A stretch of DNA of 64,000 nt from an uncultured Desulfobacteraceae bacterium (GTDB taxonomy: Bacteria > Desulfobacterota > Syntrophobacteria > BM002): positions 1,280 through 65,279 of the forward strand of contig CAYFXH010000001.1 in NCBI GenBank assembly GCA_964346905.1. The letters run 5' to 3'. Made by a program: the position numbers and the translations under genes. Positions 2,957 to 49,061 of the stretch are shown in pieces. The notes below the pieces were generated by a model that worked only from the letters and a program-made list of their open reading frames with translations, did no database searches and was not told the origin of the DNA. The first letter of the stretch is position 1; each line of letters opens with the position of its first letter.

Positions 2957-3062
2957 GATATTCGAAATTCTCGAGCCTTGCACCTTGTACCTTGCGCCTT
3001 CTGCCCGCTGCCCTCTGCCTTCTGCTCCATGCTCTATGCCCCATGCCCCATGCTCCCTGCTA
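2957..3062. repeat. Phased degenerate heptanucleotide tandem array (ccttgca/ccttgta/ccttgcg/ccttctg/cccgctg/ccctctg/.../ccccatg x2)
   Basis: About 12 consecutive 7-nt units kept in phase, seen directly; non-coding region 2430-3275. Confidence 0.7.
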
Positions 3063-3275: not shown

Positions 3276-3902
3276 ATGAAAAAATCCATGTTCTTTTCGA
3301 TGCTGCTTGCCATTTTTTTCTGTGGTCCTGCCCAAAGCTTGGCAGAAAAAGCTCCGCAAAAGATCGCCGGGTTCGTGCTTGGCGACCAAGTTGCCCTGTA
3401 CATTGACCTGATTCGCATGGAGACGACTATGCCGATTCGTGATCAGCAGTATCTTCGTATAGCACAGACGAAAGATCTCGACGGCTACAAGAGTGGCACC
3501 ATCGCATTTGCCAACTGCGCTGAGCCGGGGCGAATCGTCCGAATCAAACTAAAATACGCTTTTTCGGACAAAGAGTTTTACAACGAGCTCCTGGAGCGAT
3601 TTAAAAAAAACTTCGGGGAACCGGATGAGTGGCGTGGAGACCCTTTCCACGTGATTATAGCCTGGAAATGGGCTTTCAGAAATGAGGCCAACAACAAAAT
3701 CAGTCTCACCCTTCAGCATAGCAGGGATGAGGAATATAAGTGGGGCAACTCGGTGAAGTTGACCAACACAACGCTTGTGGAGAAAGAACGGCTCTGTTAC
3801 CAGCAGAAAAAACCTGGGAAATCCGATGAGCAGAAAAGCGGTTTTGGCGCCAAGAAGAAAAGCCTGACAGAAAAAGACTACCAGCGATTCGTTCCAGAAT
3901 AG
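3276..3902 (+). CDS. Hypothetical secreted protein (N-terminal signal peptide)
   Basis: 208 aa; MKKSMFFSMLLAIFFCGPAQSLA signal sequence; no recognisable domain by eye. Confidence 0.5.
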   Translation: MKKSMFFSMLLAIFFCGPAQSLAEKAPQKIAGFVLGDQVALYIDLIRMETTMPIRDQQYLRIAQTKDLDGYKSGTIAFANCAEPGRIVRIKLKYAFSDKEFYNELLERFKKNFGEPDEWRGDPFHVIIAWKWAFRNEANNKISLTLQHSRDEEYKWGNSVKLTNTTLVEKERLCYQQKKPGKSDEQKSGFGAKKKSLTEKDYQRFVPE

Positions 3903-3921
3903 ATTTCCACCATACAGCTGC

Positions 3922-3952
3922 AGGGTGGGCGATGCCCACCCTACGTTTTTCT
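3922..3952 (+). terminator. Rho-independent terminator-like hairpin (AGGGTGGGC-GAT-GCCCACCCT followed by ACGTTTTTCT)
   Basis: 9-bp GC-rich perfect stem, 3-nt loop, T-run; 20 nt after stop of 3276..3902. The same palindrome recurs at 8951-8967. Confidence 0.5.
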
Positions 3953-3960
3953 AAAACGGT

Positions 3961-4079
3961 TAAAATCTAAAATCCTCAATTCCCACATTCGCAGTTCGAA
4001 ATTCGAAATTCGAAATTACTTCCCTATGCCCCATGCTCTATGCCCTATGCCCTATGCCTGCTTTAGCCACCTTAGACAC
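3961..4079. repeat. Phased heptamer tandem array (taaaatc x2 ... tcgaaat x3 ... ctatgcc x4 ...), about 17 units
   Basis: Units stay in 7-nt register across 119 nt; same words (tcgaaat, ccctatg) recur at 5569-6050, 7086-7140 and 7741-7960. Confidence 0.7.
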
Positions 4080-4080
4080 C

Positions 4081-5499
4081 TCACATAAGTGCGCTGGCCG
4101 CTGCACGGGCTATTTCAAGAAGATAGCGTGGGAATACACCCACCACCACCATTACGGTTACCAGACCCCCCGTGAGCACCTTGGTGGGAATGGACAATTG
4201 AAGTCGAGGCAAACGTTCATCCGACTCTAACAGGTAGGCGGCCCTGACTATCAAAATGTAGTAATACAGGGAAATTACCACATTGACCATTGCGATGAGC
4301 ACTAACATGAAGTACCCCTTTTTCATGGCGGCGATAAAGACCAGAAATTTGGCGGTGAAGCCGATGGTCGGGGGAATGCCGGCCAGTCCGAACATTCCGA
4401 GCATCAGGGCCATGGCAAGCATGGGGGAGCGGCGGTGTAATCCTGCCAGTTGGGCAATCTGCAAGTCACTGCCGTCATATGCCACCTTCACCACCACCAG
4501 AAAGCAGGTAAACTTCATCACTAGATAGGCCACAGCATAAAAAATCGCACCGGCATAGCCGTTTTGATTCATGCTGAGAATCCCGATCAGAACGTAGCCG
4601 GCATGGGAAATGCTTGAGTACGCCAACAGCCGCTTCATGTCCTTCTGCACAATCGCCACCAAATTCCCCAAGGTCATTGAGGCTATTGAAAGCGTAACCA
4701 GCACGTGAGCCAGATAGGTGCTGCTACCTGTGCTCAGGGCTACCGTCCTCATAAGGATTGCCACCGCCGCAACCTTGGAGGCCGTGGCAATATAGGCGGT
4801 GACCTGATTGGCAGCCCCCTGGTATGCGTCCGGGGCCCAGAAATGAAATGGGAAGACGGCAAGCTTAAAGAAGAAGCCGCACAGAGTGAGGAGCAACCCG
4901 ATGATGGCTGCCGGCCTCCCAATTGCACCGGGAAGCACCTTGATAATTTCCGCCACATAGGTGGTGTGGATAACCCCGTAGAGTGAGGCAATGCCAAAAA
5001 GCATCACCGCCGAGGCAAAAGCTCCCACCAGGAAATACTTAATGCCCGACTCCACATGTACGCCGTAACCCCTCCTGAGAGGAACCAATATGTAGAGCGA
5101 ATAACTGGAGAGTTCCAGAGCGACGTAGATGGTCAGCAACTCAACGCTGCTTACCAGTAGCATCATCGCCAGGGTGCATGTGCTCAAAAGGAGGTAGAAT
5201 TCTGGGTGGTGCCGCTCCTCTATACCATTAAGCTCAGAGCAGATACAGATCACGAGAAACAGACCCATGGCCAGAATGACCTTGAAAACCTGAGAAAAGA
5301 GATCCACCCGATAGACCTTAAAAAAGAGCGTTCCTTCCAGCCTAACTGAGGCCAAACACACTGCCACACCCACAGAGGCCAGGAAGAGGGCGATGAAGTA
5401 ATCCCTCCTAGGATTGGGTCGCACCACCAAAGCCAGGCTAAAGAAAACCGCGATCATGAACAAGAAATATAATTCAGGTATGAAGAGAGACCAATTCAC
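4081..5499 (-). CDS. nuoN: NADH-quinone oxidoreductase subunit N
   Basis: 472 aa, 14 TM-like segments; FPFHFWAPDAYQGA, ATASKVAA, KRLLAYSSISHAGY motifs align to NuoN (E. coli FHLWTPDVYQGAP / KRLLGYSSISHLGY). Confidence 0.85.
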   Translation of the reverse strand: MNWSLFIPELYFLFMIAVFFSLALVVRPNPRRDYFIALFLASVGVAVCLASVRLEGTLFFKVYRVDLFSQVFKVILAMGLFLVICICSELNGIEERHHPEFYLLLSTCTLAMMLLVSSVELLTIYVALELSSYSLYILVPLRRGYGVHVESGIKYFLVGAFASAVMLFGIASLYGVIHTTYVAEIIKVLPGAIGRPAAIIGLLLTLCGFFFKLAVFPFHFWAPDAYQGAANQVTAYIATASKVAAVAILMRTVALSTGSSTYLAHVLVTLSIASMTLGNLVAIVQKDMKRLLAYSSISHAGYVLIGILSMNQNGYAGAIFYAVAYLVMKFTCFLVVVKVAYDGSDLQIAQLAGLHRRSPMLAMALMLGMFGLAGIPPTIGFTAKFLVFIAAMKKGYFMLVLIAMVNVVISLYYYILIVRAAYLLESDERLPRLQLSIPTKVLTGGLVTVMVVVGVFPRYLLEIARAAASALM

Positions 5500-5568
5500 G
5501 GCTTCAACCTATATTGATCCGGAATGTACTGAGCTTGATTACAGTTTCACTACACGTCTAATCTGGCA

Positions 5569-5625
5569 TTAAATTCGAAATACGAAGCACGAAACAAATC
5601 CGAAATACGAATGTTCAAATGCTCC
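5569..5625. repeat. Heptamer array (cgaaata/cgaagca/cgaaaca/aatccga/aatacga); left arm of inverted repeat flanking 4HB gene
   Basis: Reverse-complementary in composition to 5976-6050 (gatttcg/aatttcg units). Confidence 0.6.
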
Positions 5626-5630
5626 AAAGA

Positions 5631-5996
5631 CTACTGACTCTTCTGCAATATGGCACCGAAAATATTCATCAGTTCGGTAGCTTCAATGATCAAAGTGTCT
5701 CGATCTTTTTCCTGTTCTTGATCTTTATTAGTGTCGACCAACCTTAGCCAATACCGGCTTTCTTTGGCCTCTTTACGGCAGATCTTGATTCGCATAATGA
5801 AGTCTTTTTTGCTGAGAGACTCATTAGCTTCAATGTAGTTCGATCCAACAGAGCCAGATGCCTTAACCAATTGTTTTCCATCTTCGATATTTGTAATAGT
5901 CCTCGGTAGTCTCTTTACGAAGGCCCTGACTTCCCTGGCAAAAGCCAGGGTGCGGTCTTCAAAATCATACTGTTTTGAATTTCGAATTTTGGACAT
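5631..5996 (-). CDS. Four-helix-bundle protein (23S rRNA intervening-sequence protein family, TIGR02436-like)
   Basis: 121 aa; motif KASGSVGSNYIEANES plus KICRKEAKESRYWLRL helices typical of IVS-encoded 4HB proteins. Sits on the same strand as the nuo genes, between nuoK and nuoN, flanked by inverted heptamer arrays. Confidence 0.7.
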   Translation of the reverse strand: MSKIRNSKQYDFEDRTLAFAREVRAFVKRLPRTITNIEDGKQLVKASGSVGSNYIEANESLSKKDFIMRIKICRKEAKESRYWLRLVDTNKDQEQEKDRDTLIIEATELMNIFGAILQKSQ

Positions 5997-6050
5997 TAGA
6001 ATTTGTTTCGGATTTCGATATTCGGATTTCGGATTTATTCCGCCTCAGGG
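5976..6050. repeat. Heptamer array (tgaattt/cgaattt/.../gatttcg x3); right arm of inverted repeat flanking 4HB gene
   Basis: Seen directly; overlaps 4HB start codon region. Confidence 0.6.
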
Positions 6051-6101
6051 TGTCCGTGTCTCCTTTTTCCCTTTTTTTTCTCGTTGCGATCGCCAGTTCC
6101 T

Positions 6102-6407
6102 TTACCATTTCAAAATGTTATAAGTTTCCGGGTTCAATGAACCCGTCCGCCTGTAGGCATAGACAATTAACGCCAGTCCCACCGAGACTTCTGCTGCTGC
6201 GATCGCAAAGATGAAAAGCACGAAGACCTGTCCCTCCAGCTGTTGCCAGCGTAGCGCTGCAGCGACAAAGGCCAGTGCGGCTGCATTCAGCATGATTTCC
6301 ACACCAATGAGCATCATGATCAGGTTGCGGCGGGCCACTGCGCAAACCACCCCCATCGCAAAAAGTATCCCTGCTAAAACCAAAACATGGCTGTAAGGCA
6401 CAATCAT
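6102..6407 (-). CDS. nuoK: NADH-quinone oxidoreductase subunit K
   Basis: 101 aa, 3 TM; LIGVEIMLNAAALAFVA motif; 4-nt overlap with nuoJ. Confidence 0.9.
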   Translation of the reverse strand: MIVPYSHVLVLAGILFAMGVVCAVARRNLIMMLIGVEIMLNAAALAFVAAALRWQQLEGQVFVLFIFAIAAAEVSVGLALIVYAYRRTGSLNPETYNILKW

Positions 6408-6931
6408 GATTCATCCTCTTTACGGTCGCCGCTCTCCTGTACATAGGCTTTGCCCAGATACAGAGCGCCGATCAGGGCTATAAGCAGCAGGAATGAGATG
6501 ATCTCCACTGAAAGCCAGTATTTCTGGAAAAGAAATCGCCCGAACACCCTCGGCTTTGCCAGGGCTGTTTCCAGAATCGTCTGGCTGCCTGGGTCTGTAG
6601 TAACTACAAGAACTGTAACAGCAAGATAGACAATGCCTAAGATACCGGCTGGGAACCATTCTCGTAGTGACGGCCTACGCAGGGCCGACGGTTCCACCCG
6701 AAGCATCATGATGATAAAAAGAAACAGGACCATAACTGCCCCGGCATAGATAATAATTTCCAGTGCGGCCAGAAGCGGTGCCCCGAAAAGATAATAGAGC
6801 ATGGCGCTCCCGAAGAAGGAGATGATCAAATAGACCACCGCATGCACCAGATTTTGCCGGGTAATGGCTAGCCCGGTGGCAACCAAAATCACGCCGGCTA
6901 AGACATAAAAAATGGCAGCATAAATGGTCAT
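6404..6931 (-). CDS. nuoJ: NADH-quinone oxidoreductase subunit J
   Basis: 175 aa multi-TM protein directly upstream of nuoK in conserved order. Confidence 0.85.
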   Translation of the reverse strand: MTIYAAIFYVLAGVILVATGLAITRQNLVHAVVYLIISFFGSAMLYYLFGAPLLAALEIIIYAGAVMVLFLFIIMMLRVEPSALRRPSLREWFPAGILGIVYLAVTVLVVTTDPGSQTILETALAKPRVFGRFLFQKYWLSVEIISFLLLIALIGALYLGKAYVQESGDRKEDES

Positions 6932-6944
6932 TCTCTTACCTTAA

Positions 6945-7140
6945 TCAGTAGTCAGTAGTCAGTAGTCAGAGAGGCATAGGGCTCAAGGCTCAGGGCGCAA
7001 GGAAAAAATTTCGTCTTCTACTGCCTTTAGCCTTACGCCTTGTGCCGTGCGCCTTTCATCAATCTGCAATCTGCAATCTCAAATCTGAAATCCCCTAATT
7101 CCGAAATCCGCAATTACTTCCCTATGCATGCTGTCTCGAG
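6945..7140. repeat. Long composite heptamer array in nuoJ-nuoI spacer (cagtagt x3, gctcaag/gctcagg, tagcctt/acgcctt/gcgcctt, tctgcaa x2/tctcaaa/tctgaaa, ccgaaat)
   Basis: Seen directly; ~200 nt of non-coding DNA inside an otherwise tightly coupled operon. Confidence 0.7.
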
Positions 7141-7148
7141 TCTCCCTC

Positions 7149-7685
7149 TCACGGCAAATTGCTTTTTATGTTCACCGGTTTATCTTCTTTCACGTGTGCT
7201 CCTTTGCCGCCAACCTCGGTTACCACTCCAGCGTATTTATAGAAGTTGTACTCGTTATTTTTGCCGCCGTGATCCACCAGAAGATCTTCTTTTTCATAGA
7301 CGAGTTTCAAAATGTCGCGCTCACATGTCTCAAAATAGGGCGTTAGTTGGATCGCCAGGGTGGGACACGCCTCTTCGCAAAGTCCACAGTAGATGCAGCG
7401 GGCAAAGTTGATGCGAAACCAGCGGGCGTAGCGGCGGCCATCCTCCTGCTCTGCCGATTGCATGGAGATGCAACTTACCGGGCAAACGGCCGAGCACAGG
7501 TAGCAGGCGACACAGCGCTCACCACCATCGGGATCCCGCGTAAGGATGATTACTGCCCGTGACCGCTCCGGCAGAGGCCGCTTGTACTCTGGGTATTCCT
7601 CGGTAATGGGTTTGCGAAAGAGATGCTTAAATGTAGTAGCAAACCCACTAGCCAAGGCCTTTAATGCTTCCAAGGTCGCCTGCAC
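7149..7685 (-). CDS. nuoI: NADH-quinone oxidoreductase subunit I (2x[4Fe-4S] ferredoxin)
   Basis: 178 aa; CVACYLCSAVCP and CIYCGLCEEACP cluster motifs. Confidence 0.9.
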   Translation of the reverse strand: MQATLEALKALASGFATTFKHLFRKPITEEYPEYKRPLPERSRAVIILTRDPDGGERCVACYLCSAVCPVSCISMQSAEQEDGRRYARWFRINFARCIYCGLCEEACPTLAIQLTPYFETCERDILKLVYEKEDLLVDHGGKNNEYNFYKYAGVVTEVGGKGAHVKEDKPVNIKSNLP

Positions 7686-7740
7686 GAAAACCCCTCTAAA
7701 CTTTTGATTGCAGTCCTACTTCATAATCTGCGCTGTTAGG

Positions 7741-7960
7741 CCTTGCAAATTCGAATATCGAAATTCGAAATCCGAAACAATGTTCAAATTCTCAAAATTG
7801 GTCCTCCGGATCCCCCAGCATACGGGCGGGTCCCAGTTTCGAATGACCAAAACTTAATACAAAGGCTTTCATTCAGAGTTGTTTTGAATATTGGAGCATT
7901 TGAATTTCGAATTTGTTTGGAAATTCGTGCTTCGGATTTCGGATTTTTAGATCAAAAGAA
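7741..7960. repeat. Inverted pair of tcgaaat/ccgaaac heptamer arrays (7741-7800 and 7890-7950) in nuoI-nuoH spacer
   Basis: Arms are reverse complements in composition (attcgaa... vs ...ttcggat). ORF 7743..8042 inside it is judged spurious. Confidence 0.6.
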
Positions 7961-8930
7961 CTGCTCCCGTCACCATGATGTTCAGCAGGGCCAGGGGTAC
8001 CAGAACCTTCCAGCCCAGGTGCATGAGTTGATCATAGCGTAGTCGTGGCAAAGTCCCCCTCACCCAAATCATGAGGATGGCAACCACAAGGATTTTAATC
8101 AGGAACCACACCACTGGTGGCAGTATGGGCCCGCGCCATCCCCCCAAGAAAAAGACGGCCACTAGCGCCCCGAATACCTGCAGATTCACGTATTCTCCGA
8201 GGAAAAACAGGCCAAAGCGCATTCCGCTATATTCTGTGTGGTAACCGGCGCCCAGTTCATTTTCCGCCTCTGGAAGGTCGAAGGGAATACGCTTGGTCTC
8301 GGCCATGGCGCTGATAAGAAAGATGGCGAAAGAGACCGGCTGCACCAGAACGAAGGGATAGTCAGCCTGGGCGCGGACAATGTCCACCAGGCTGAAGGAA
8401 CGTGCCAGCATAACTATGGGAACCAAGGAAAGCCCCAAAGAGAGCTCGTAGCTGATCATTTGGGCGGCACCACGAATACCACCCAAAAGACTGTATTTTG
8501 AGTTTGAAGCCCAGCCTCCCAGGGCAACTCCGTACACACCCAGAGAAGCCAGAGCAAACACATAAAGCAATCCTACATTCAGATCCGTGATCACAAGAGG
8601 AATTGTCTTCCCGAGAACGGTTACACTGGCACCAAAGGGGACAACTGCAAAGATAAGCAGTGCCTCGGCAGCAACCACTGCCGGAGCCAAAAGGAAAAGA
8701 GCACGGTCTGCGGCCTCAGGAACCGTATCCTCTTTGGTCAACATCTTGACAGTGTCGGCAAGGGGTTGCAGCAAGCCAAACTTTCCAGCCCGATTCGGCC
8801 CGTAGCGAATTTGTAGCCGGCCAAGGAATTTTCTCTCCAGCAGCACCAGGTAGGCAGCCAGGAGAAGCAGTCCAACCAGAACCACCCCCAGTTTTACGAT
8901 GAGCAGGATGAATCCGATAAGCCAGGTCAT
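7947..8930 (-). CDS. nuoH: NADH-quinone oxidoreductase subunit H
   Basis: 327 aa, 8 TM; LLERKFLGRLQIRYGPNR and EAENELGAGYHTEYSGMRFGLFFLGEY motifs. Confidence 0.9.
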   Translation of the reverse strand: MTWLIGFILLIVKLGVVLVGLLLLAAYLVLLERKFLGRLQIRYGPNRAGKFGLLQPLADTVKMLTKEDTVPEAADRALFLLAPAVVAAEALLIFAVVPFGASVTVLGKTIPLVITDLNVGLLYVFALASLGVYGVALGGWASNSKYSLLGGIRGAAQMISYELSLGLSLVPIVMLARSFSLVDIVRAQADYPFVLVQPVSFAIFLISAMAETKRIPFDLPEAENELGAGYHTEYSGMRFGLFFLGEYVNLQVFGALVAVFFLGGWRGPILPPVVWFLIKILVVAILMIWVRGTLPRLRYDQLMHLGWKVLVPLALLNIMVTGAVLLI

Positions 8931-8950
8931 AGGATTCCGTTCTCATGGAT

Positions 8951-8967
8951 GGTGGGCATCGCCCACC
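8951..8967. repeat. GGTGGGCATCGCCCACC palindrome (second copy of the 3922-3942 hairpin)
   Basis: Exact reverse complement of the element at 3924-3940. Confidence 0.6.
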
Positions 8968-8984
8968 AAACGGTTATTTCATGA

Positions 8985-9172
8985 ATCCTGCAGGAGCAAC
9001 GTCCTCGTTGCGATCCCACAATCCACAAACTACACAATCGTTTATCGCCAGCAGCCTCCGGCCCGGCTTTCAGGCCGGAGGGAGGGGCCTTATCGCAAGC
9101 AGAGCTTGCTCTACAGGAGTTCTCATCACATGCATTGAGCAACGCTTTATGGCGGGCACAGAGGCCCGCCCT
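8985..9172. repeat. Hairpin-rich intercistronic element, copy 1 (nuoG-nuoH spacer)
   Basis: Shares blocks cctgCaggagcaAcgtCctcgttgcgatcc and tttaTggcgggcacagaggcccgccct with copy 2 at 11768-11912; internal hairpins ctccggcc...ggccggag, gcaagc-agag-cttgc, ggcgggc...gcccgcc. Confidence 0.6.
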
Positions 9173-9214
9173 ACCGGTCTCTCATTGAAGTATGGGTAAT
9201 TCATCTTGACCATT

Positions 9215-11725
9215 TTAAGCACGTATCTTCTCTATCTCCTCAAACCTTACGAACTTCGGCGACCTCTCGATCTTCTGCCACTCCAGGAGGTGATGCCGCG
9301 GCAAAACCATCACCCCGGGAGCCATATTTTCCACAGCACAGAGATTGACTTCCAGACTACCTCTATCCAGTTCGATCGAGACCGTATCTCCATGGGTCAG
9401 ACCCAATCCGGTGGCATCATCGATGTGCATGAAGAGACAGGGGCTCTTTTCCAACCGACCGAGGGGTGGTGAGTGAGCGGAGAGTTCTTCGGTGCCAAAG
9501 GTCCAGTCAGTCAGAAGGAGTTCCAGGCCATCACCAGGAGCATGGCTTTTTTTCATCTCCTTCAGCCAGTCCAGCGAGAAGCGGTGAATATCTTCCTTAC
9601 TTACCCGGAGCCGGACCCCGTCATCCGGGAGTTCATCGATTGGCGGGATATCTGCGAATGCGGGATTGGCCTCAGCTAGCCAACCCCACACGCTCGCACG
9701 CGTTGTTTCCTCACCAACCTCCAGCTCTCCATTGGCAAGCTGTGCGAGAACTTCCCAGGCAGCCCGCAACTCCCCACCTGGAATGACACTGCTGTAAACC
9801 CGCGGCGGATGGTTGCCGCCACTAATGCGAGCGAGAGGGATTCCACCCGGATATACCTTCACTGCTGCCTGAACCCTGCCTTCCTGGTTTATGAAAACCC
9901 CACCTGTCTCATAGAGAGTTGATACAGGTAGAAAGACATGCGCCTGGTGCGCAGTTAGAGAATCTCGATAATCCAAAACAACAAGCAAATCGAGCTTTTC
10001 AATAGCAAGGTCCAACCTTTGCCGATCCTGAAAATGGCCAAAAGGATCGCTTTCGGCCACGATCAACCCCTTAACCGTTCCTTGCTCGATATCCTCGAGT
10101 GTCTTCGAGAAGGAACTCGCTTCAGCTGAAAGCACTGACGAGCCGAAACCGTTTGCTCCGGGCATCAGGTAAAAAAGTCCTGCTGGCTTGTTCATTGCCC
10201 GCAAAAGTAAGGCGTGGTCAGCTGCCAAAGCTGGAGTGGTCTGGCGTACGACCTCAGTGCCGCATACAATTATTGGTCGCTGACTCTCTCGAAGTTCTTG
10301 TGCTAATATTGATACCTGCTCCCGAAGCGGAGGAGCAGCACGTTTCAGGGCCGGCATCGCCTCGTAAAAATCGACTGCGGCCGGTCCAAGTTCTTTCGCC
10401 GCTTCACGGTGGACAGCCTGTTTTATCAGTAAACTGCAGTAGAGGTTGACCTCAGCCAATCCCACTGGCATGTGTTCGAAATCAAAGGGCAAGGAGATCG
10501 GTCGAGGGTCGATGACAGCTATCGTGCCGCCGGCTCGTCGGGCCTGTCTCATTGCCAAGGCCAGCATGGGCGCCTCGTTGATGGGATCGGCTCCCACCAC
10601 AAGGATGAAATCAGCTCCTTCCAACTCCCGCAGAGAAACCGTTAAGTCCGGTTCCAGCCTTGAGGTTGCTATTTCCGCCTTTATCGCCAGGGATTGATCC
10701 ATAAAGTATGACGGACCGTTCCATCCTTTTGATTGACATAGCTGCTCGAGCATTGCCTGAGTTTCGAGAGTGCTGCGTCCTGAGCCCACGCAACCGATAG
10801 CCTCAGCTCCTTCCCTCTTGCTAATCTGTTCCAGCCTTTCATGGACGGTTCTGATAGCCTGGTGGTAAGTAACCTCCTCGCCTTCAACCAGTGACCGCCA
10901 TGGTCTCTTCTCGTCGCTTGCATAGGCGAAGCCGTAGCGGCCCCGATCACATATAAAGTAGCCGTTTACCGCCTCACTGTATCGTGCTTCCTGCCGCACT
11001 ACCTCCCGGTAACGAATACTTGCTATGGTATGACATCCTAAAGAGCAGTTGATACAGAGAGAAGGGCTACGCTCATAGTCCCACCGCCTACCGAAAAACC
11101 GAGATGGTTTATCGGTGTAAACACCAGTGGGGCAGATATCGGCCAGATTGCCGGCAAAGGGGCTTTTTAGGGTGCCATCTTTGTACCGGCCAAAATAGGT
11201 GCGGTCGCCTATCTGCATCACGCCCAGGTCGTCATACCCCGCAAATTCTTGATAGAACCGCGAACACCGGTAGCAGTGAATGCAGCGATTCATTTCATGC
11301 TGGAGCAACGGACCCAGGTACTGATCTTGGTAAGTCCGTTTCTTCCCCAGATATCTTCGGATACCGTGCCCCCCCGAAATCGTCATATCCTGCAATAGGC
11401 AGTGCCCCCCTTCATCGCAGACAGGACAATCATGCGGATGATGCAGCATGAGCCATTCGATTACGTATTTACGAAATTCCACCGATTCTTCGTCGGTGGT
11501 TGATACCACCATGCCGTTCTTAGCATCGATCATGCAGCTCATCTGCACGCCTTTAAACGGCCCTTCCACGAACTTCACGGCACAAACCCGGCAGGCCCCC
11601 ACAGACCCCAGTCCGGGATGATAGCAAAAGCGAGGAATCATAATGTCCAGCTGTTCCGCGGCCTCGATCACCTTTGTCCCTTCGGGGACCTCTATTTCTC
11701 GATCATCGATAATTATCTTAACCAT
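9215..11725 (-). CDS. nuoG: NADH-quinone oxidoreductase subunit G (75 kDa, 2Fe-2S/4Fe-4S, molybdopterin-like domain)
   Basis: 836 aa; N-terminus MVKIIIDDREIEVPEGTKVIEAAEQLDIMIPRFCYHPGLGSVGACRVCAV, CPVCDEGGHC and CIHCYRCSRF cluster motifs. Confidence 0.9.
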   Translation of the reverse strand: MVKIIIDDREIEVPEGTKVIEAAEQLDIMIPRFCYHPGLGSVGACRVCAVKFVEGPFKGVQMSCMIDAKNGMVVSTTDEESVEFRKYVIEWLMLHHPHDCPVCDEGGHCLLQDMTISGGHGIRRYLGKKRTYQDQYLGPLLQHEMNRCIHCYRCSRFYQEFAGYDDLGVMQIGDRTYFGRYKDGTLKSPFAGNLADICPTGVYTDKPSRFFGRRWDYERSPSLCINCSLGCHTIASIRYREVVRQEARYSEAVNGYFICDRGRYGFAYASDEKRPWRSLVEGEEVTYHQAIRTVHERLEQISKREGAEAIGCVGSGRSTLETQAMLEQLCQSKGWNGPSYFMDQSLAIKAEIATSRLEPDLTVSLRELEGADFILVVGADPINEAPMLALAMRQARRAGGTIAVIDPRPISLPFDFEHMPVGLAEVNLYCSLLIKQAVHREAAKELGPAAVDFYEAMPALKRAAPPLREQVSILAQELRESQRPIIVCGTEVVRQTTPALAADHALLLRAMNKPAGLFYLMPGANGFGSSVLSAEASSFSKTLEDIEQGTVKGLIVAESDPFGHFQDRQRLDLAIEKLDLLVVLDYRDSLTAHQAHVFLPVSTLYETGGVFINQEGRVQAAVKVYPGGIPLARISGGNHPPRVYSSVIPGGELRAAWEVLAQLANGELEVGEETTRASVWGWLAEANPAFADIPPIDELPDDGVRLRVSKEDIHRFSLDWLKEMKKSHAPGDGLELLLTDWTFGTEELSAHSPPLGRLEKSPCLFMHIDDATGLGLTHGDTVSIELDRGSLEVNLCAVENMAPGVMVLPRHHLLEWQKIERSPKFVRFEEIEKIRA

Positions 11726-11767
11726 TGGTCAATAAAAGGGGTCAGGCAGTTCGAGTTAATGCTCGTT

Positions 11768-11912
11768 GTCCTGTAGGAGCACCGTGCTCGTTGCGATCCA
11801 TTCGCATGTGTACCAATTCATCTATCAAATCGCGACCTGGAGGTCGCTCCTACAGACAATTTACCAATGATGGCTTTTAGGCGGGCACAGGAGGCTCCGC
11901 CCTATTGAGATT
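11768..11912. repeat. Hairpin-rich intercistronic element, copy 2 (nuoF-nuoG spacer)
   Basis: Blocks cctgTaggagcaCcgtGctcgttgcgatcc and tttaggcgggcacaggaggctccgccct; long-range complementarity ctgtaggagc ... gctcctacag. Confidence 0.6.
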
Positions 11913-11976
11913 ATCTACCTTTAGACGCATTAGGCACTTCAGCTCACTTTAGGCATGTCTAGCCTGACAGCTGACA

Positions 11977-13254
11977 TCACTTCCTAAAAGGACATCTCTT
12001 TTGACTAATGTGCTCCCTGACCTCATCTTCAAAGTAGGTAATGAGGCTCTCAACCGGTGATACGGCACCGGGGGCGAATGCACAGTAAGAACTCCAGAGA
12101 TGCTTGCTCATCTGCTGAAGCATTGGTATGAACTCCTCCCTGCCCTCACCTTCTTCCAAACGTCGGAGCAGATCCCGGATGTACGGCAGACCTTCCCGGC
12201 ACGGCGTACACCAACCGCAGGACTCTCGGGCAAAAAACTCGGTTAAGTTCAGGGTGGCGGCAACAAGACACGTCTTCTGGTCGAAGACCATGATTGCACC
12301 GGTACCGAGTCTATGTCCAACTGCGCGCATGGGATCAAAGTCCATTTCAATGTCGTAGAACTCCTTGGGCAGATAGCGGGTGGAAGCGCCGCCCGGCAGA
12401 CAGGCCTTATATTCGGAACCTTCTGGCATCCCGCCAGCATGGACTTCAATGATTTCACTCAGCTGCACTCCCATGGGTAGTTCTACGCAGCCCGGCTTAT
12501 TGACCCTGCCACTGATACAGAAAATCTTGGTACCCGCACCGGTTTCATTTATTGCCAGGCTTTTGTACCACTCAGAGCCGTTTCTGATGATATGCGGTAT
12601 GTTTGCGAGAGTTTCCACGTTCTGAAGTACGGTGGGCTTGTCCCAAAGCCCCTTTTCCGTAGGATAGGGAGGTGGTTGCTGCGGGTTCGGCCTCTTGCCC
12701 ATCAGGGCATTTAATTGAGCCGTGACCTCGCCGCAGATGTATCTACCTCCACTGCGGTGGACAACAATGTCCAGGCTATAGTCGTTTCCCAGGATGTTTT
12801 TTCCCAAAAAGCCTGCCTCTTTGGCAATCTTGATCTCCCTTTCGAGAATTCTTGCCGCGCTCTCGTATTCAGGTCGAATGAAAATAATGCCCTTCTCCGC
12901 CTTTGCCCCGTATCCATCGATGATCATGCCCTCAATAATCATGTGGGGGTCCGTATGGATCAAGACCCGATCTTTGAATGTTCCTGGCTCCATCTCATCG
13001 GCATTACACACGACGTATCTCGGATACGGCGCATCATCCGCTACCGTCATCAACTTCCTTCCGGCTGGAAAGGCGGCGCCACCCCTACCCAGCAGAATGG
13101 CATCCAAGAGTACCTGCTGCACGTCCTTGTAGGAGTAGTTGCGCATTACCTCAGTCAATGCCTGGTAACCGCCGCTCTGCTGATATTCCTCAAGCGTGGC
13201 AATTCGGTCCGGCTTGCGATTTTGAAAGAGAACTTGCGGATAGCTCGGGGCCAT
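11977..13254 (-). CDS. nuoF: NADH-quinone oxidoreductase subunit F (51 kDa, FMN/NADH-binding)
   Basis: 425 aa; GRGGAAFPAGRK (FMN site), ESCGWCTPCREG 4Fe-4S motif. Confidence 0.9.
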   Translation of the reverse strand: MAPSYPQVLFQNRKPDRIATLEEYQQSGGYQALTEVMRNYSYKDVQQVLLDAILLGRGGAAFPAGRKLMTVADDAPYPRYVVCNADEMEPGTFKDRVLIHTDPHMIIEGMIIDGYGAKAEKGIIFIRPEYESAARILEREIKIAKEAGFLGKNILGNDYSLDIVVHRSGGRYICGEVTAQLNALMGKRPNPQQPPPYPTEKGLWDKPTVLQNVETLANIPHIIRNGSEWYKSLAINETGAGTKIFCISGRVNKPGCVELPMGVQLSEIIEVHAGGMPEGSEYKACLPGGASTRYLPKEFYDIEMDFDPMRAVGHRLGTGAIMVFDQKTCLVAATLNLTEFFARESCGWCTPCREGLPYIRDLLRRLEEGEGREEFIPMLQQMSKHLWSSYCAFAPGAVSPVESLITYFEDEVREHISQKRCPFRK

Positions 13255-13296
13255 CTGTCCTCGCCTCTCGGTTCAGGGACGCATCACTATTCTAAG

Positions 13297-13378
13297 AGGT
13301 GCGATGTGGGATATGGGATGTGTACTGCCAGAAGACGGGCTTCGAAGAATCTCTATCTCACATCTCACATCCTCGCTC
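13297..13378. repeat. Hairpin element built from GATGTGR heptamers (gcgatgtgggatatgggatgtg ... atctcacatctcacatcctcgc)
   Basis: Inverted arms seen directly in the nuoE-nuoF spacer; same word family as 18155-18245. Confidence 0.6.
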
Positions 13379-13421
13379 CAGGACAGCCGCATATTGTGCT
13401 TCTTCATTATGATGTAACCAT

Positions 13422-13970
13422 CTAAGCCTGTGATTTGAGCTTGTCTAAGATCTCATCTAGTTTCTCGGGCGTAAGCGGTCCGTATACTTTCTTGTTGATT
13501 AACATAGCTGGTGCTCTATCGCAGTAGCCAATGCAGCACACCGGCAATAGGGTAAACAGTCCGTCTGCCGTGGTTTCCCCCATCTCTATCCCTAATTTCC
13601 GGCAGAGGTGCTCAATAATTGACTCATGTCCTTCCATCCAGCAGATGACACTGTCACAGATGTGGATAACGTATTTTCCAACCGGCTCTCTGTAGACGAA
13701 GGTGTAGAACGTAGCGAGTTCTTCCACCTCCAGGGGAGACATATTCAGGAGTGCGGCCACCTCCTCAACAGCCTCATCGCTCAGATAGCCGTAGTGGTCT
13801 TGGACAGCGAACATCACATCCACCACCAGCTCCCGGGGATGTTCGACGGTGGCTATGTGTTCTTCGAGGGAATTTTTCAACGGTTCAGGCAACATTGGAT
13901 GTCTAGACCCACATGAGCTCAATGGAGTGCTGGAGTAACAGTACTCCACTACTCCCGTTTTCCTGGCCAC
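13422..13970 (-). CDS. nuoE: NADH-quinone oxidoreductase subunit E (24 kDa, thioredoxin-like 2Fe-2S)
   Basis: 182 aa; CDSVIC...CCIGYCDRAP cysteine pattern; ORF-track start is GTG, true start uncertain. Confidence 0.85.
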   Translation of the reverse strand: MARKTGVVEYCYSSTPLSSCGSRHPMLPEPLKNSLEEHIATVEHPRELVVDVMFAVQDHYGYLSDEAVEEVAALLNMSPLEVEELATFYTFVYREPVGKYVIHICDSVICWMEGHESIIEHLCRKLGIEMGETTADGLFTLLPVCCIGYCDRAPAMLINKKVYGPLTPEKLDEILDKLKSQA

Positions 13971-14014
13971 CCCAGATTACCTAGATGCAACTGACCACGG
14001 ACAACGGACATTAT

Positions 14015-16405
14015 TTATCTATCTATATCCGGCAGAATATAGTCGATGGAACCTACGATGGCGATGAGGTCTGCAATGGTCTCATTCACAGCCATCAAGG
14101 GCATCACCTGCACATTGGCAAATCCGGGTGCACGTATCCTCGTGCGATAGGAGTAGCCGACTCCGTCACTCACCACGTAATAGCCCTGTTCCCCCCGGGG
14201 GATCTCACAGGAACTGTAAGCTTCACCTTTGGGGATTTTGGGTCCACGGGTTACGTTGATAAAATGATGAATTAGGCTCTCTATGTCTTTGAGCATGTCC
14301 CCGCGCTCAGGGATCACATAGCGGTAATCGTCCGTGACGTACCGACCAGCAGGCATCTGCTCTGCGGCCTGTTCAATAATCCTCAAACTCTGGCGCATTT
14401 CTTCCACCCGCAACAGATAACGGGCATAACAATCTCCTTCCGTGGCGGTGGGCACTTCAAACTCAAAGTTCTCGTAACCAGAATATGGAAAATTCTTTCG
14501 CAGATCCCACTCCAGACCGCAGGCACGCAAGTTTGGACCACTCACGCCCCAGTCAATGGAATCTTCCAAGGAGATGCGGCCGATGCCCTGGGTTCGGGCC
14601 TTAAAGATGGCGTTCTTGGTTATGAGTGTTTCGTACTCTTTGAGCCGCTCAGGGAATATTTTGACAAAGTAATCCACCGCTTCTTTCCAACCCTCCGGCA
14701 AGTCAGCGGCAACACCTCCCAACCGGAACCAGGACGGATGCAATCGTCCTCCGGTTATGAGTTCAATAATGTCGAGAATTATCTCCCGTTCGCGGAAGGT
14801 ATAGAAATTGGGGGTCATGGCTCCCACATCGTGGGCCATGGTGGCAAAAAAGACGAGGTGGTTGCTGAGCCGGAAAAACTCGCTGAGCATCACCCGAATA
14901 ACCTGAGCCCGATCAGGAACATTGATATCGGCAAGTGCTTCCACCGCCATTACGTATGGGAGATTATTGGCAGCCCCAGCCAGGTAATCCACTCGATCCG
15001 TGTATGGAATATATTGGTGCCAGGTTTGGCGTTCGCCGATTTTTTCCGCCGCCCGATGGTGGTAGCCGATGTCCATGTCAAGTTCGGTGATCTCTTCACC
15101 TTCAAGTGAGACAATAAAGCGCATCAGGCCGTGGGTACTGACGTGGTGAGGACCGATGTTTAATACCAGCTGGTGCTCCTTTCCATCTCTCCTAATATAG
15201 ATACCACCATCCAGGGGTTGGTGCTGCTGGGCATCGGCCAGGGTATAAGGCTCCATTTCCGTTGCACGGCCAGGATAGCTCTTTCTCAGGGGATGGCCCT
15301 CCCAGTCGTGCGGCATAAGAATGCGACCGAGATTCGGATGACCCTCAAACCGGATCCCAAACATGTCGTAGACTTCCCGTTCATACCAGCTTGCAGACGG
15401 CCAGATATCGGTGACACTTTTGGTAACCGGTTCCTCACCGTTTAGGGCAACCTTTACACGCAACCGGCAGGCGGGCTCGAATGAGAGCAGGTGATAGACC
15501 AGGGTGTAGTCCGAATAACCAGCTCGCTCCCTCCGGGCGGATTCATCAATTGCGGTGAGATCGTCCAAGCGTCGGTACCTGGGAGTCGCTTCTCCTTTGA
15601 GAAAACGCAGAACATCCTTAAACCGTTCGTGCGGTACCTGGAATGTGGGCATGTCCGAGGTCTGTGGCGTCTGCTGGATATCGTCCCCAAACCGCTCTTG
15701 CAAAACATTTGCGAGGCTCGTATCATCCTCACTCAATTCTATTCGCCGCGGCCGGGGTGTCCACATGAGATCGGAGCGGCTGTCCCAAAATTTCGGTGGA
15801 GCCACTGAAGTCCCTCTGATGGCAACACCTTGCATGCCCGGGCCACGCGGGTCTCGAGACTTTGTCTGGCCATCGACGAGAATGGGCGTCTGAGTGCCCT
15901 GGGTACCCCCTGGGAGGTGGAAAATGGCACGAGTCGGTCGTTCTTCCGAGACTATTTTTTCTTGCAAAAGCACAAGCCCTTGGAGTACAGCCTCAGGTCT
16001 GGGTGGGCAGCCAGGAATATAGACATCCACCGGCAATATCTGATCCACCCCCTGCACTACGCTATAGGCGTCATACATGCCACCACAGTTGGAGCACGAT
16101 CCCATAGAGATGACCCACTTGGGTTCCGCCATCTGCTCGTAAAGCCGCAAAACAACAGGGGCAATCTTCTTGAAAACAGTACCGGATATTATTAAGAGAT
16201 CCGCCTGCCGGGGTGAAGGCCGGAGCACCTCCGCCCCGAAGCGGGCCATGTCGTACCGGGCGGTAAAAGCGGTAGCCTCCTCCACGAAGCAGCAGGAAAG
16301 CCCAAAAAACATGGGCCAGAGACTGTACTTACGGGCCCAGTTTATCAGGAAATCGGCCCCCTGCAGCAACCGGTTGTTCAATGCTTTTTCGACGTTGGCC
16401 CCCAC
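14015..16405 (-). CDS. nuoBCD: Fused NADH-quinone oxidoreductase subunits B, C and D in one ORF
   Basis: 796 aa single ORF. Residues ~1-170 are NuoB ([14 protein letters not shown]...GCPPRPE), then a ~100-aa linker, then NuoC ([19 protein letters not shown]), then NuoD ([10 protein letters not shown]...[10 protein letters not shown]). Confidence 0.85.
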
Positions 16406-16788
16406 TCAAGTCCCCCCTTCTTCCAGATATACAGAAGACCAAGGAGCAGAACGATAATGAAGAACGATATTTGCAACCAGCCCGCCCAGCCGAGGCTATC
16501 GTAAGAAATGGCCCAGGAGAAAATGTAGGCCGCCTCCACATCAAAAATGAGAAAGAAGATGGCAACAAGGTAAAAAGGAACGGGGTAACGAAGACGAGCC
16601 GAGCCGGTAGGAATTACCCCGCTTTCATAAGGCCTGAGTTTCTCAGGATTGCTTTTCTTTTCCCCGAGCCAGGAAGCAAAAAAGAGGAGCACCACCACCA
16701 GACCTAGCACCATAAGACCGTAGATAGCCAAGCTAAAAAGACCCGGCTCCCAGGGCGAGAGTGTACCGACAGTTAGGATTGGTTGCAC
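16378..16788 (-). CDS. nuoA: NADH-quinone oxidoreductase subunit A
   Basis: 136 aa, 3 TM; PYESGV...[12 protein letters not shown] motifs; 28-nt overlap with nuoBCD start. Confidence 0.85.
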
Positions 16789-18154: not shown

Positions 18155-18268
18155 ATTGCTGATATGCGATGTGAGATGTGAGATGCAGAATATATAATCC
18201 AAGACCCTTCCTGAACACCCACATCGCATATCAGACATCCGACATTTGAATTTGTTTCGAACTTCGGT
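18155..18268. repeat. GATGTGA-heptamer hairpin element (ctgatatgcgatgtgagatgtgagatgcag ... cacccacatcgcatatcagacatccgacat) plus adjacent ttgaatttgtttcg unit
   Basis: Inverted arms with a TATATAAT-containing loop (18189-18196); seen directly. Confidence 0.6.
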
Positions 18269-21100: not shown

Positions 21101-21265
21101 TCAAATTCGAAGCTAGAATGTCGAAATCCGAAACAATTCTCAAATGTTCAAAATTCAAATGATCAAAACTAAGACACCAATTTCTCTAGTGCCAATTTCT
21201 AGCATTGGAGAATTCGGTTTTTGAATTTGTTTCGTGCTTCGTGCTTCGGATTTAGAATTTGGATT
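21101..21265. repeat. Inverted pair of cgaaatc/ttcaaat heptamer arrays between sucA and sucB
   Basis: Left arm attcgaagctagaatgtcgaaatccgaaacaattctcaaatgttcaaaattcaaatg; right arm ttcggtttttgaatttgtttcgtgcttcgtgcttcggatttagaatttgg. Confidence 0.6.
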
Positions 21266-37712: not shown

Positions 37713-38363
37713 ATGGCGACCGTTGTGAGCAATGACCACATTAAAATTGATCGGTTAGAATTGGGGCCGTTCGGCACTAATGGGTACATCTTAACCTGCC
37801 AAAAGACACAAGAGAGTGTGGTGATTGACGCCCCCGGCCAAGTCGACAGAGTCCTGGAAGCGCTGGAGGATACACACCCCCAATACATCCTAATTACTCA
37901 TGACCATTTTGATCATGTGGGTGGTCTTTCCCGGTTGAAATCAGCCTTGAACGTTCCCGTCGCTGCCCACCCTGCAGATGGTGACGGGCTTCCCCTACCT
38001 GCGGATATTCTCCTACATGACGGTGAGGTACTATCCTTTGGAGCCAGAGAGCTTACGGTGTTGCACACACCGGGCCACACTCTGGGAAGCATATGCTTGC
38101 TGACCGGGAATTACTTGATTGCGGGGGATACGTTATTTCCGGGAGGTCCGGGTAAAACCCAATCACCCGCAGACTTCCGGCAGATTATTGAATCCATAAC
38201 CCAGAAGATTTTCACATTGCCGGACAACACCCACGTGTATCCCGGACACGGGGAAGCAACAACGGTCAAGGAGGCAAAAAAACAGTACGAGGTTTTCTCA
38301 ACCCGACCGCACGATCCGGATCTTTGCGGGGATGTGGTTTGGGATAAATCGCAGAGCGCATAG
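37713..38363 (+). CDS. MBL-fold metallo-hydrolase
   Basis: 216 aa; ITHDHFDHVGG (HxHxDH) and downstream His/Asp ligands. Confidence 0.8.
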   Translation: MATVVSNDHIKIDRLELGPFGTNGYILTCQKTQESVVIDAPGQVDRVLEALEDTHPQYILITHDHFDHVGGLSRLKSALNVPVAAHPADGDGLPLPADILLHDGEVLSFGARELTVLHTPGHTLGSICLLTGNYLIAGDTLFPGGPGKTQSPADFRQIIESITQKIFTLPDNTHVYPGHGEATTVKEAKKQYEVFSTRPHDPDLCGDVVWDKSQSA

Positions 38364-38498
38364 CGCAGAGCGTATATTCAAAAACTGCAAAGTTATTTTA
38401 AATATCGCAAACAAATGCTAGTCGTTGAATTTACCAGAATGATTTTAGTCTAGCCGTTTTTCTAAACGCTATGCGCTTTGCGCTCTGCGCTATGCGAG
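38350..38498. repeat. Inverted heptamer repeat (cgcagagcgcatagcgcagagcg ... cgctatgcgctttgcgctctgcgctatgcg) bracketing the convergent gene ends
   Basis: Arms at 38350-38373 and 38467-38498 are near-perfect reverse complements; candidate bidirectional terminator/REP element. Confidence 0.5.
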
Positions 38499-46540: not shown

Positions 46541-46576
46541 TTCAGATTGCAGATTTTAGATTGCAGATTTTAGATC
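46541..46576. repeat. Tandem 14-mer (cagattttagattg x2) 3 direction of the DMT gene / far upstream of the ECF operon
   Basis: Seen directly. Confidence 0.5.
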
Positions 46577-46698
46577 TAGGAACTAAGACCAAGAGTGTGC
46601 CAGTGATAATCACATGTGTGTTTTCAAAAAGGACATGTTGAACGTGCATCGAAAAAAACCACCTCCTAGATATTCACAATCTCAAATCTCAAATGGTC

Positions 46699-48971: not shown

Positions 48972-49052
48972 TCATTTCCAAGTGCTGCTGTACGAATTAT
49001 CACCTGTTGCGTTTTGATTCTTGCTTATAGCTGACGGCTGATAGCTGATAGC
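48923..49052. repeat. (cggtcag)x4 tandem at the 3 end of 48309..48971 and imperfect inverted copy gctgacggctgatagctgatagc 60 nt downstream
   Basis: Seen directly; encodes GGQRSAVSGQQ tail; arms could pair as a 3 hairpin. Confidence 0.5.
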
Positions 49053-49061
49053 TCAAAAGAA

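Follow-up and report, generated by a model that had tools for sequence, protein, structure and literature searches.

Introduction

The 23S rRNA intervening sequences (IVSs) of Coxiella, Leptospira, and Salmonella have complementary borders and are excised by RNase III (PMC4990558). The best-studied IVS, that of Coxiella burnetii, is 428 to 444 nt long and carries an S23p open reading frame (ORF) with a poor Shine-Dalgarno sequence; the ORFs of Leptospira IVSs are S23p orthologues (PMC4990558). Here we analyze a gene of this kind in a different setting. A 64,000-nt stretch of contig CAYFXH010000001.1 from an uncultured Desulfobacteraceae bacterium (hereafter the window) includes a complex I (nuo) operon in which a gene for a four-helix-bundle (4HB) protein, enclosed by inverted arrays of 7-base repeats, lies in the spacer between nuoK and nuoN. 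We conclude that this cassette is probably a resident copy of a self-contained hairpin guest of the rRNA IVS type that occupies mRNA spacers, rather than a device for the control of complex I.

The cassette and the IVSs of C. burnetii and Leptospira share a protein family (PF05635/TIGR02436), a similar size, and a stem with the ORF in its loop. Both have poor or absent Shine-Dalgarno sequences and lie in sense orientation; IVSs are transcribed from the host promoter, as the cassette most likely is. Unlike the IVSs, the cassette resides in a protein-coding operon spacer and not in an rRNA helix (23S helices 9, 25, and 45, or 16S), its arms are arrays of 7-base repeats, and ORF-less miniatures occur in the same genome. 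Its ORF is under strong purifying selection, whereas that of Coxiella is decaying. RNase III excision of the cassette is proposed here by analogy.

Heptameric repeats form a second point of comparison. The short tandemly repeated repetitive (STRR) sequences of Nostoc (TTTTGAA/TTCAAAA) (bioRxiv 10.1101/2022.06.06.494920) and the TAACTGA repeats of Beggiatoaceae (PMC4679880) are intergenic heptamers, often near start codons, and the partner that interacts with the Nostoc repeats is described as still unidentified (bioRxiv 10.1101/2022.06.06.494920). The cassette arms are likewise tandem 7-base units in intergenic DNA, and arrays of precisely ATTCAAA/TTTTGAA border two cyanobacterial 4HB genes. 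The Nostoc and Beggiatoaceae repeats are described as direct arrays without a linked gene, and the searchable papers make no reference to 4HB genes; in contrast, the complementary arrays described here enclose a conserved ORF.

Other comparisons are with miniature inverted-repeat transposable elements (MITEs), with repetitive extragenic palindromes (REPs) or bacterial interspersed mosaic elements (BIMEs) and their REP-associated tyrosine transposases (RAYTs), and with diversity-generating retroelements (DGRs). Like MITEs and REP/BIME sequences, the cassette is multicopy, intergenic, palindromic DNA with full and internally deleted copies, and contigs often break at it. Unlike them, it encodes no transposase, shows no target-site duplication at the 70 listed 5' junctions, is strictly in sense orientation, and has arms that overlap the ORF start. 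REP-like GC-rich palindromes do occur in the same spacers, as a repeat class separate from the cassette arms. The DGR protein Avd has a homologous four-helix-bundle fold (Foldseek TM score of about 0.7 to 8ub7/4dwl) (PMC10053308), with a sequence identity of only about 14%. No reverse transcriptase or template/variable repeat pair lies beside the cassette, whose neighbors are nuoK and nuoN, although no systematic search for them was made.

The 4HB protein family, rRNA IVSs, and heptamer repeats are already known separately. We found no paper linking 4HB genes to flanking heptamer arrays in a literature search that covered subscription and older literature thinly, so that a prior description is possible, and likewise no description of IVS-like cassettes in operon spacers, again with thin coverage of the older literature.

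Structure of the cassette and its protein

The nuoK/nuoN spacer is 602 nt long (5500-6101), and most of it is cassette. The parts, in window coordinates, are:

5571-6036, minus strand: whole cassette (5' arm, 4HB ORF, and 3' arm), about 466 nt
5997-6036, minus strand: 5' arm, four to five CGAAATN-type heptamers, ending CGAAACAAATTCTA right before the ATG
5631-5996, minus strand: 4HB ORF, 121 aa (PF05635/TIGR02436)
5960-5996, minus strand: ORF start, first ~12 codons, placed in the stem of the consensus structure by the consensus duplex and pair counts
5571-5630, minus strand: 3' arm, an TTTGAACATT box and then ATTTCG-type heptamers, complementary to the 5' arm
6102-6407, minus strand: nuoK, the upstream host gene, with its stop 65 nt ahead of the 5' arm
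4081-5499, minus strand: nuoN, the downstream host gene, with a GTG start 71 nt past the 3' arm

Read on the minus strand, the 40 nt upstream of the ORF (5997-6036) are AAATCCGAAATCCGAATATCGAAATCCGAAACAAATTCTA, with the ATG immediately after, and the 60 nt past the stop (5571-5630) contain TTTGAACATTCGTATTTCGGATTTGTTTCGTGCTTCGTATTTCGAATTT. A repeat search returned these flanking arrays as inverted pairs of 31 nt (81%) and 25 nt (80%), and Tandem Repeats Finder reported a period of 7 at 5571-5611 within the 3' arm. The initial annotation, made from the letters of the window, had described a 121-aa TIGR02436-like ORF on the nuo strand between nuoK and nuoN, in a spacer whose ends are complementary arrays of CGAAAT-type heptamers capable of forming a long stem. 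This description holds: the ORF scores above the cut-offs of both families, the strand, the spacer, and the inverted pairs are as stated, and the proposed fold prediction, run on 5540-6060, pairs the arms (z = -2.8). The accompanying remark that such genes sit in 23S rRNA stem-loops excised by RNase III matches what is known of ORF-bearing IVSs (PMC4990558).

The minimum free energy (MFE) structure of this segment unites the arms at -137.3 kcal/mol, compared with -120.7 +/- 5.9 kcal/mol for shuffled sequences, of which none in 100 folded equally well. Its long-range stem consists of an 18-bp helix and three 5-bp helices that join 6008-6043 with 5589-5627, and leaves the ATG unpaired. The consensus structure of the related elements described below has a register of 69 pairs that extends over the ATG and ~10 initial codons. 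In it, ATGACCAAA pairs with TTTGGTCAT and TTCAAAACA pairs with TGTTTTGAA. Third codon positions are 0.64 identical in the first ~12 codons versus 0.455 in the remaining ORF. Among 24 window genes, the 4HB gene has the highest flank-to-flank complementarity (score of 14 versus at most 10, median 7).

The 5' arm has no Shine-Dalgarno motif. For the nuo strand, a simple sigma-70 scan of 3800-8100 gave no promoter-like site, and no intrinsic terminator-like site turned up in the cassette or its two spacers. An Rfam scan of 3500-8500 gave no credible match and no rRNA family; the sole hit, to a microRNA model, has an E value of 0.11, is far below the gathering score, and falls outside the cassette.

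The predicted protein scores 46 bits against PF05635 (23S rRNA IVS protein; cut-off of 33.8) and 68.1 bits against TIGR02436 (four helix bundle protein; cut-off of 24), and matches PDB entry 2rld (BT_0352) with an E value of 9e-10. An AlphaFold2 monomer model has four helices (residues 9-29, 34-59, 63-86, and 93-120; pLDDT of 89.1), as expected for the single-domain, up-down four-helix bundles of about 110 to 125 residues that characterize the family. The nearest structures by Foldseek are 2rld and 2gsc, followed by the DGR protein Avd. All three (2gsc, 2rld, and Avd) are homopentameric toroids. The ratio of nonsynonymous to synonymous substitution rates (dN/dS), 0.04 to 0.13, indicates that the ORF is under purifying selection and functional. 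The protein has no match in PADLOC or PHROGs and no relative in the viral contigs searched. Our guess, because Avd is part of a ribonucleoprotein reverse-transcriptase complex, is that the 4HB protein may bind structured nucleic acid of its own element.

Copies of the cassette in other operons

More than 8000 close homologues of the 4HB protein were found, almost all of 121 aa. The top 120 are 74 to 100% identical to it, nearly all of this same length, and mostly on short contigs; homologues that carry cassette arms have 69 to 100% aa identity. Loci were collected by exact look-up of homologues and by a metagenome scan that added 80 loci. The alignment (A1) comprises 71 elements, duplex energies were computed for 76, and 85 sampled copies were used for context clustering. 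Contexts were defined as clusters of neighbor proteins; an earlier 11-mer criterion was too strict and split diverged orthologous sites.

By this definition, the 85 copies occupy about 45 distinct contexts. These include the nuoK/nuoN site of a relative (87% aa identity of the 4HB protein), the junction of an ABC ATPase and a MacB-type permease gene, a site after methylmalonyl-CoA mutase, and the interior of an exopolysaccharide operon. From the many contexts, together with presence and absence among relatives, we infer that the element is mobile.

Nearly all copies have the same 5' arm, which abuts the ATG, and the same 3' arm past the stop. For codon positions 1, 2, and 3, the pairwise identity among the 71 elements is 0.80, 0.87, and 0.47, respectively. 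The 5' arm (the 40 nt that precede the ATG) reaches 0.78 and the 3' arm 0.72, compared with 0.27 for the 20 nt upstream of the 5' arm. The arms are constrained about as strongly as first codon positions, and the host flanks are unconserved. The ends are sharp, with AAATYCGAA at the 5' end of nearly all copies and termini of the form AAATYCG...CGRATTT.

The upstream gene is co-oriented with the 4HB ORF in 34/34 contexts and the downstream gene in 32/35; counted by copy, the figures are 55/55 and 50/54. A palindromic stem would form whichever way the cassette was inserted, so this strict bias carries information: it implies that it is important for the ORF to be transcribed from the host promoter. 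By a heuristic measure, cassettes start a median of 32 nt past the upstream stop and end a median of 26 nt before the next start. Many copies have the next gene's Shine-Dalgarno sequence immediately past the 3' arm.

The arms pair well throughout the family. In 76 related elements, the arm duplex averages -41 kcal/mol, compared with -20.6 +/- 6.0 kcal/mol when the 3' flanks are shuffled, and 76.7% of cells are paired in the consensus register versus 26 to 55% when the partner is slid. Locus L186 offers a clear compensatory case: CG is changed to TA in every unit of both arms, and the 3' arm pairs with its own 5' arm at -36.3 kcal/mol versus a mean of -15.7 with the 5' arms of others. This locus and L121 are among the outliers in the comparison of cognate with non-cognate pairing. 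Individual folds and the consensus duplex recover the long-range stem; RNAalifold, applied to 71 whole elements, did not return it and gave only a 5-bp local helix.

Some copies recovered from one site in different samples have arms that differ by entire heptamers (L093/L095, L083/L090, and L105/L106), consistent with slippage-type change in copy number. At locus L100 (434-900), the 3' arm stops short after CATTTGAACA and is followed by an IS200/IS605-type Y1_Tnp gene, either an insertion sequence within the arm or an assembly join. A candidate case of one protein (P0067) at two sites (L097 and L100) was rejected, as the upstream flanks are identical and the difference lies downstream only.

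Miniatures in the same window

The arm family extends beyond the nuoK/nuoN spacer, a correction to the initial annotation. It also occurs at 7747-7946 and 21102-21260, in both cases without an ORF, so that the 64 kb contain three copies of the element and one remnant. The additional features are:

7747-7946, minus strand (sense to nuo): ORF-less miniature in the nuoH/nuoI spacer, found by BLAST with the arms; fold z of -2.1
21102-21260, plus strand (sense to suc): ORF-less miniature in the sucA/sucB spacer; fold z of -2.3
18235-18266, plus strand: 3'-arm-like remnant (CATTTGAATTTGTTTCGAACTTCGG) shortly before sucA

Both miniatures keep the 5' arm, the ATG, about 30 nt of coding start, and the 3' arm. 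They look like internally deleted 4HB elements because the arms and the coding start are retained together. The nuoH/nuoI miniature has 74% column identity with the 5' part of the cassette (alignment A3) and carries a GC-rich mini-hairpin nested in its loop.

Distant 4HB genes on plasmids

A tblastn search of plasmids returned more distant 4HB genes (25 to 43% identity), of which we inspected 14. Their hosts are Nostocales, Planktothrix, Gloeocapsa, Pseudanabaena, Candidatus Chlorohelix (Chloroflexota), and two Bacteroidota. Inverted heptamer arrays flank 12 of the 14 genes on both sides, with units of other sequences: ATTCAAA/TTTTGAA, AATTCGC/GCGAATT, GTCGGAG/CTCCGAC, CGTAAAT/ATTTACG, TTTTAGA/TCTAAAA, AGTAAAA/TTTTACT, and ATGAAGG/CATAATT. 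In the two Bacteroidota copies (Bernardetia and Chondrinema), the repeats are direct or not clearly inverted. Closely related 4HB proteins usually have a repeat unit in common. No particular sequence is invariant; the constant traits are the 7-base period and the inverted complementarity.

In a 50-kb control region of Nostoc punctiforme plasmid pNPUN02, only the 4HB gene, among 47 coding sequences, has complementary flanks (flank score of 31 versus at most 10, median 7), and two of the four period-7 arrays are its arms. The distant genes also lie between co-oriented genes, for example between those for a resistance-nodulation-division (RND) adaptor and a permease, or a helicase and an N6-methylase.

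The settings of these plasmid cassettes are strikingly often CRISPR-cas and other defense operons of Cyanobacteria and Chloroflexota. Examples are drmD (DISARM)/4HB/MmeI (L202), DUF1156/4HB/Swt1-HEPN (L203 and L204), csx2/4HB/cas1 (L195), and helicase/4HB (L194 and L198).

The site in the complex I operon

The host operon (window 4081-16788, minus strand) has the gene order nuoA, nuoBCD fusion, nuoE, nuoF, nuoG, nuoH, nuoI, nuoJ, nuoK, nuoN. The genes upstream of nuoK are:

16378-16788, minus strand: nuoA
14015-16405, minus strand: nuoBCD fusion (796 aa)
13422-13970, minus strand: nuoE
11977-13254, minus strand: nuoF
9215-11725, minus strand: nuoG
7947-8930, minus strand: nuoH
7149-7685, minus strand: nuoI
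6404-6931, minus strand: nuoJ

There is no nuoL or nuoM between nuoK and nuoN, and a tblastn search of the 64-kb window and of the close-clade loci found no NuoL/M-like paralogue. A NuoK search led to metagenome-assembled genomes of Desulfobacterota ("Deltaproteobacteria"), the closest at 97%, and two metagenome assemblies at NCBI contain an identical 4HB protein. Where loci of the close clade (those with a NuoK identity of 92% or more) are long enough, nuoN always directly follows nuoK; more distant Desulfobacterota relatives have the order K-L-M-N. The absence of nuoL and nuoM and the long nuoK/nuoN spacer are clade traits, independent of this cassette.

The spacer itself is hypervariable in the close clade, ranging from 212 to 823 nt. 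It holds an ORF-less hairpin of the same arm family as the window cassette in L003, a glyoxalase-like ORF in L006 (5690-6323) and L048 (6304-7126), a RAYT-like ORF between REP-like palindromes in L007 (1696-2353), and arrays only in L008 and L009. In L053 (6304-6896), it holds a different 4HB gene, 38% identical, with an in-frame stop and possibly disrupted, flanked by inverted GTCTAAA/TTTAGGC arrays. A jackhmmer search of the window and 80 nuo loci found no further 4HB genes apart from two in L053.

Several side observations concern these relatives. The second 4HB gene of L053 lies past nuoN (8379-8669). L007 and L053 have GCCTAAA/TTTAGGC arms in common, with different loop contents. Overall, the nuoK/nuoN spacer of close relatives is a hotspot for varied small ORFs.

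Proposed mechanism and alternative explanations

The element is discrete and conserved, follows an orientation rule, has arms with the potential to pair, exists as miniatures, and belongs to a family with inverted arrays. We propose that the cassette inhabits short spacers between co-directional genes, in the sense direction, and that it is most likely transcribed within the host operon, because no promoter-like site and no Shine-Dalgarno motif were found. Folding predicts that in the transcript the arms, joined by the ~30 nt at the ORF start, can form an interrupted stem of 33 to 70 bp, with the remaining ORF as the loop. Host RNase III would probably cut this stem, as it does in ORF-bearing 23S rRNA IVSs of the same protein family, an analogy that makes such excision plausible. 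Cleavage would remove the insert from the operon mRNA and divide the remainder into a nuoA-K fragment and a nuoN fragment; the 4HB message would be either released or destroyed. The splitting of the nuo transcript would then be a side effect of an element that makes itself tolerable, and not a regulatory adaptation. The cassette would also give rise to ORF-less miniatures in which only the arms and first codons are kept.

A number of results weigh against this explanation. Most measures of covariation are no higher than in shuffled data: in a fixed register, double-sided pair changes number 36, compared with 30.2 +/- 1.8 for shuffles, but neither the covariation score nor the percentage of paired cells exceeds shuffles. 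Covariation is hard to read here because the arms are conserved, repetitive, and able to pair in several registers. Cognate and non-cognate arms pair equally well (-41.1 versus -41.1 kcal/mol). G-U pairs are not in excess over A-C (312 versus 272), and the sense duplex is barely stabler than the antisense (-41.1 versus -39.6 kcal/mol, p = 0.07), so the stem could act in DNA. No target-site duplication or target motif is evident at the 70 listed 5' junctions, and no clean empty site was found. The closest ORFs in unrelated contexts have at most 87% nucleotide identity, and several sites are vertically inherited (e.g., nuoK/nuoN, at a synonymous divergence, dS, of 0.44 to 0.97); there is therefore no sign of recent movement. 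Two cyanobacterial copies, between cas2 and cas1 (L191 and L199), are antisense. Finally, 4HB proteins that are 75% identical can carry unrelated heptamer units, which makes it less likely that the protein recognizes the arm sequence strictly.

The near-parity of sense and antisense pairing is what would be expected if the cassette were a DNA-level mobile element, with the arms as terminal inverted repeats or single-stranded DNA hairpins for a transposase acting in trans (e.g., Y1/RAYT type), the 4HB gene as cargo or accessory, and the RNA hairpin incidental. Such an element would also account for the sharp AAATYCG...CGRATTT termini, the multiple copies, and the MITE-like ORF-less miniatures, and such spacers also hold RAYT/Y1 genes and REP-like palindromes (L007 and L100). 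We nevertheless consider this unlikely: no target-site duplication is seen and no transposase is linked to the element, its arms extend into coding sequence and abut the ATG, and insertion is in the sense direction in 34/34 contexts although a hairpin is neutral to orientation, which points to a need for transcription of the ORF. Alternatively, the heptamers could be multimeric binding sites, occupied by the 4HB protein (probably a pentamer) or by some other factor, that control translation or stability of the 4HB message and of the downstream gene, with arm pairing secondary. The arms are indeed conserved in sequence and not just in pairing, and the 3' arm ends a median of 26 nt before the next start codon. 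Heptamers near starts have been proposed to be regulatory in Beggiatoaceae (PMC4679880) and Nostoc (bioRxiv 10.1101/2022.06.06.494920), and Avd, the nearest characterized structural relative, forms part of the reverse-transcriptase ribonucleoprotein of DGRs (8ub7). Set against this are the unrelated units of 75%-identical proteins, the many heptamer arrays of other sequences in a window with one 4HB gene, and the fact that the trait common to all subfamilies is inverted complementarity; we regard binding sites of this kind as quite unlikely to be the primary role of the arms.

The initial annotation had suggested that the stem serves complex I itself, with RNase III uncoupling nuoN from nuoA-K and the hairpin retained for that purpose. 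The stem is real, and a related lineage has kept the cassette at nuoK/nuoN at 87% aa identity and dS 0.44 to 0.97. A nuo-specific device is nonetheless very improbable, given that the cassette sits in about 45 unrelated operons. The synteny comparison that the initial annotation called for also speaks against it: in close relatives that share the K-N order, this spacer is occupied by an ORF-less hairpin, by a small ORF (glyoxalase-like, RAYT-like, or another 4HB), or by arrays only, and nuoK-nuoN adjacency is clade-wide with or without the cassette. Moreover, hairpins of the same family occur at nuoH/nuoI and sucA/sucB. It could also be asked whether AT-rich repeats merely happen to be complementary, since the arms are of low complexity and permit several registers, and heptamer arrays are common in the genome. 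Chance or a low-complexity artifact is scarcely credible as an explanation of like arms in more than 70 independent copies with unrelated flanks, control genes without complementary flanks, and a fold that beats all shuffles. The self-contained hairpin guest is the explanation that we favor.

Implications for 4HB genes and heptamer repeats

If the nuoK/nuoN stem is cleaved, the separation of nuoA-K from nuoN would be a generic consequence of an element found in many operons. A broader proposal, which we put forward tentatively and regard as rather doubtful, is that TIGR02436 genes with heptamer arms constitute a large, unrecognized class of autonomous hairpin cassettes in transcribed spacers (rRNA helices, operons, and defense/CRISPR-cas loci) of several phyla. 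RNase III would remove them from transcripts, their deleted descendants would be a major source of the STRR-type heptamers of Cyanobacteria, Desulfobacterota, and others, and the 4HB pentamer would be the protein partner of the repeats. If true, this would link the conserved ORF of some 23S rRNA IVSs, stand-alone 4HB genes, and 7-base tandem repeats. The rRNA IVS would then be just the most familiar insertion site of a general cassette that resides in mRNAs as well, and insertions in nuo, suc, ABC-transporter, and cas operons would be expected to yield processed, segmented transcripts.

Stand-alone genes annotated as "four helix bundle protein" number in the thousands, are homologous to DGR Avd, and often lie in defense or cas operons. 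For annotation and assembly, 4HB genes would be treated as guests in operons and not as operon members, and as elements that break metagenome contigs. Cultivable hosts in which the idea is testable include Nostoc punctiforme PCC 73102 and Anabaena cylindrica PCC 7122.

Other repeats in the window

Period-7 arrays of various sequences occupy most nuo intergenic spacers of any length. Period 7 also dominates the tandem repeats of 80 related loci, with 208 arrays versus 42 of period 6 and 64 of period 8. Array sites in the window are 2976-3061, 3987-4058, 6945-7092, 13355-13371, 13988-14010, 18168-18185, 38350-38496, 46543-46694, and 48922-49053, with spacer units that vary (CCCTATG, TCAGTAG, CAATCTG, GCGGTCA, and others). 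Several can form a hairpin with a complementary array in their own spacer, such as GGCGCAC.../...CCTTGCG between nuoI and nuoJ. Downstream of nuoN, on the opposite strand, a 208-aa ORF without a Pfam match (3276-3902, plus strand) is bracketed by CCCTATG-type arrays that are direct and not inverted (3023-3053 and 4033-4058).

A second repeat class consists of GC-rich REP-like palindromes (TAGGGCGGGC..GCCCGCC) and of a CTGTAGGAGC...GATCGCAACGAG...GCTCCTACAGG unit. It is found in the nuoG/nuoH spacer (8931-9214), in the nuoF/nuoG spacer (11726-11976), past nuoN (3903-3950), and at 6070-6095. The last of these, between nuoK and the 5' arm, is a GC-rich repeat fragment with a HIP1-like GCGATCGC (6086-6093).

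Tiny GC-rich hairpins (e.g., GGGACCCGCCC...GGGGGATCC) are nested in heptamer arms or in the cassette loop, at about 7795-7840 in the window and also in loci L097, L117, L120, L122, L126, L140, and L184. Their placement suggests a third, very small inserted element that targets heptamer arrays.

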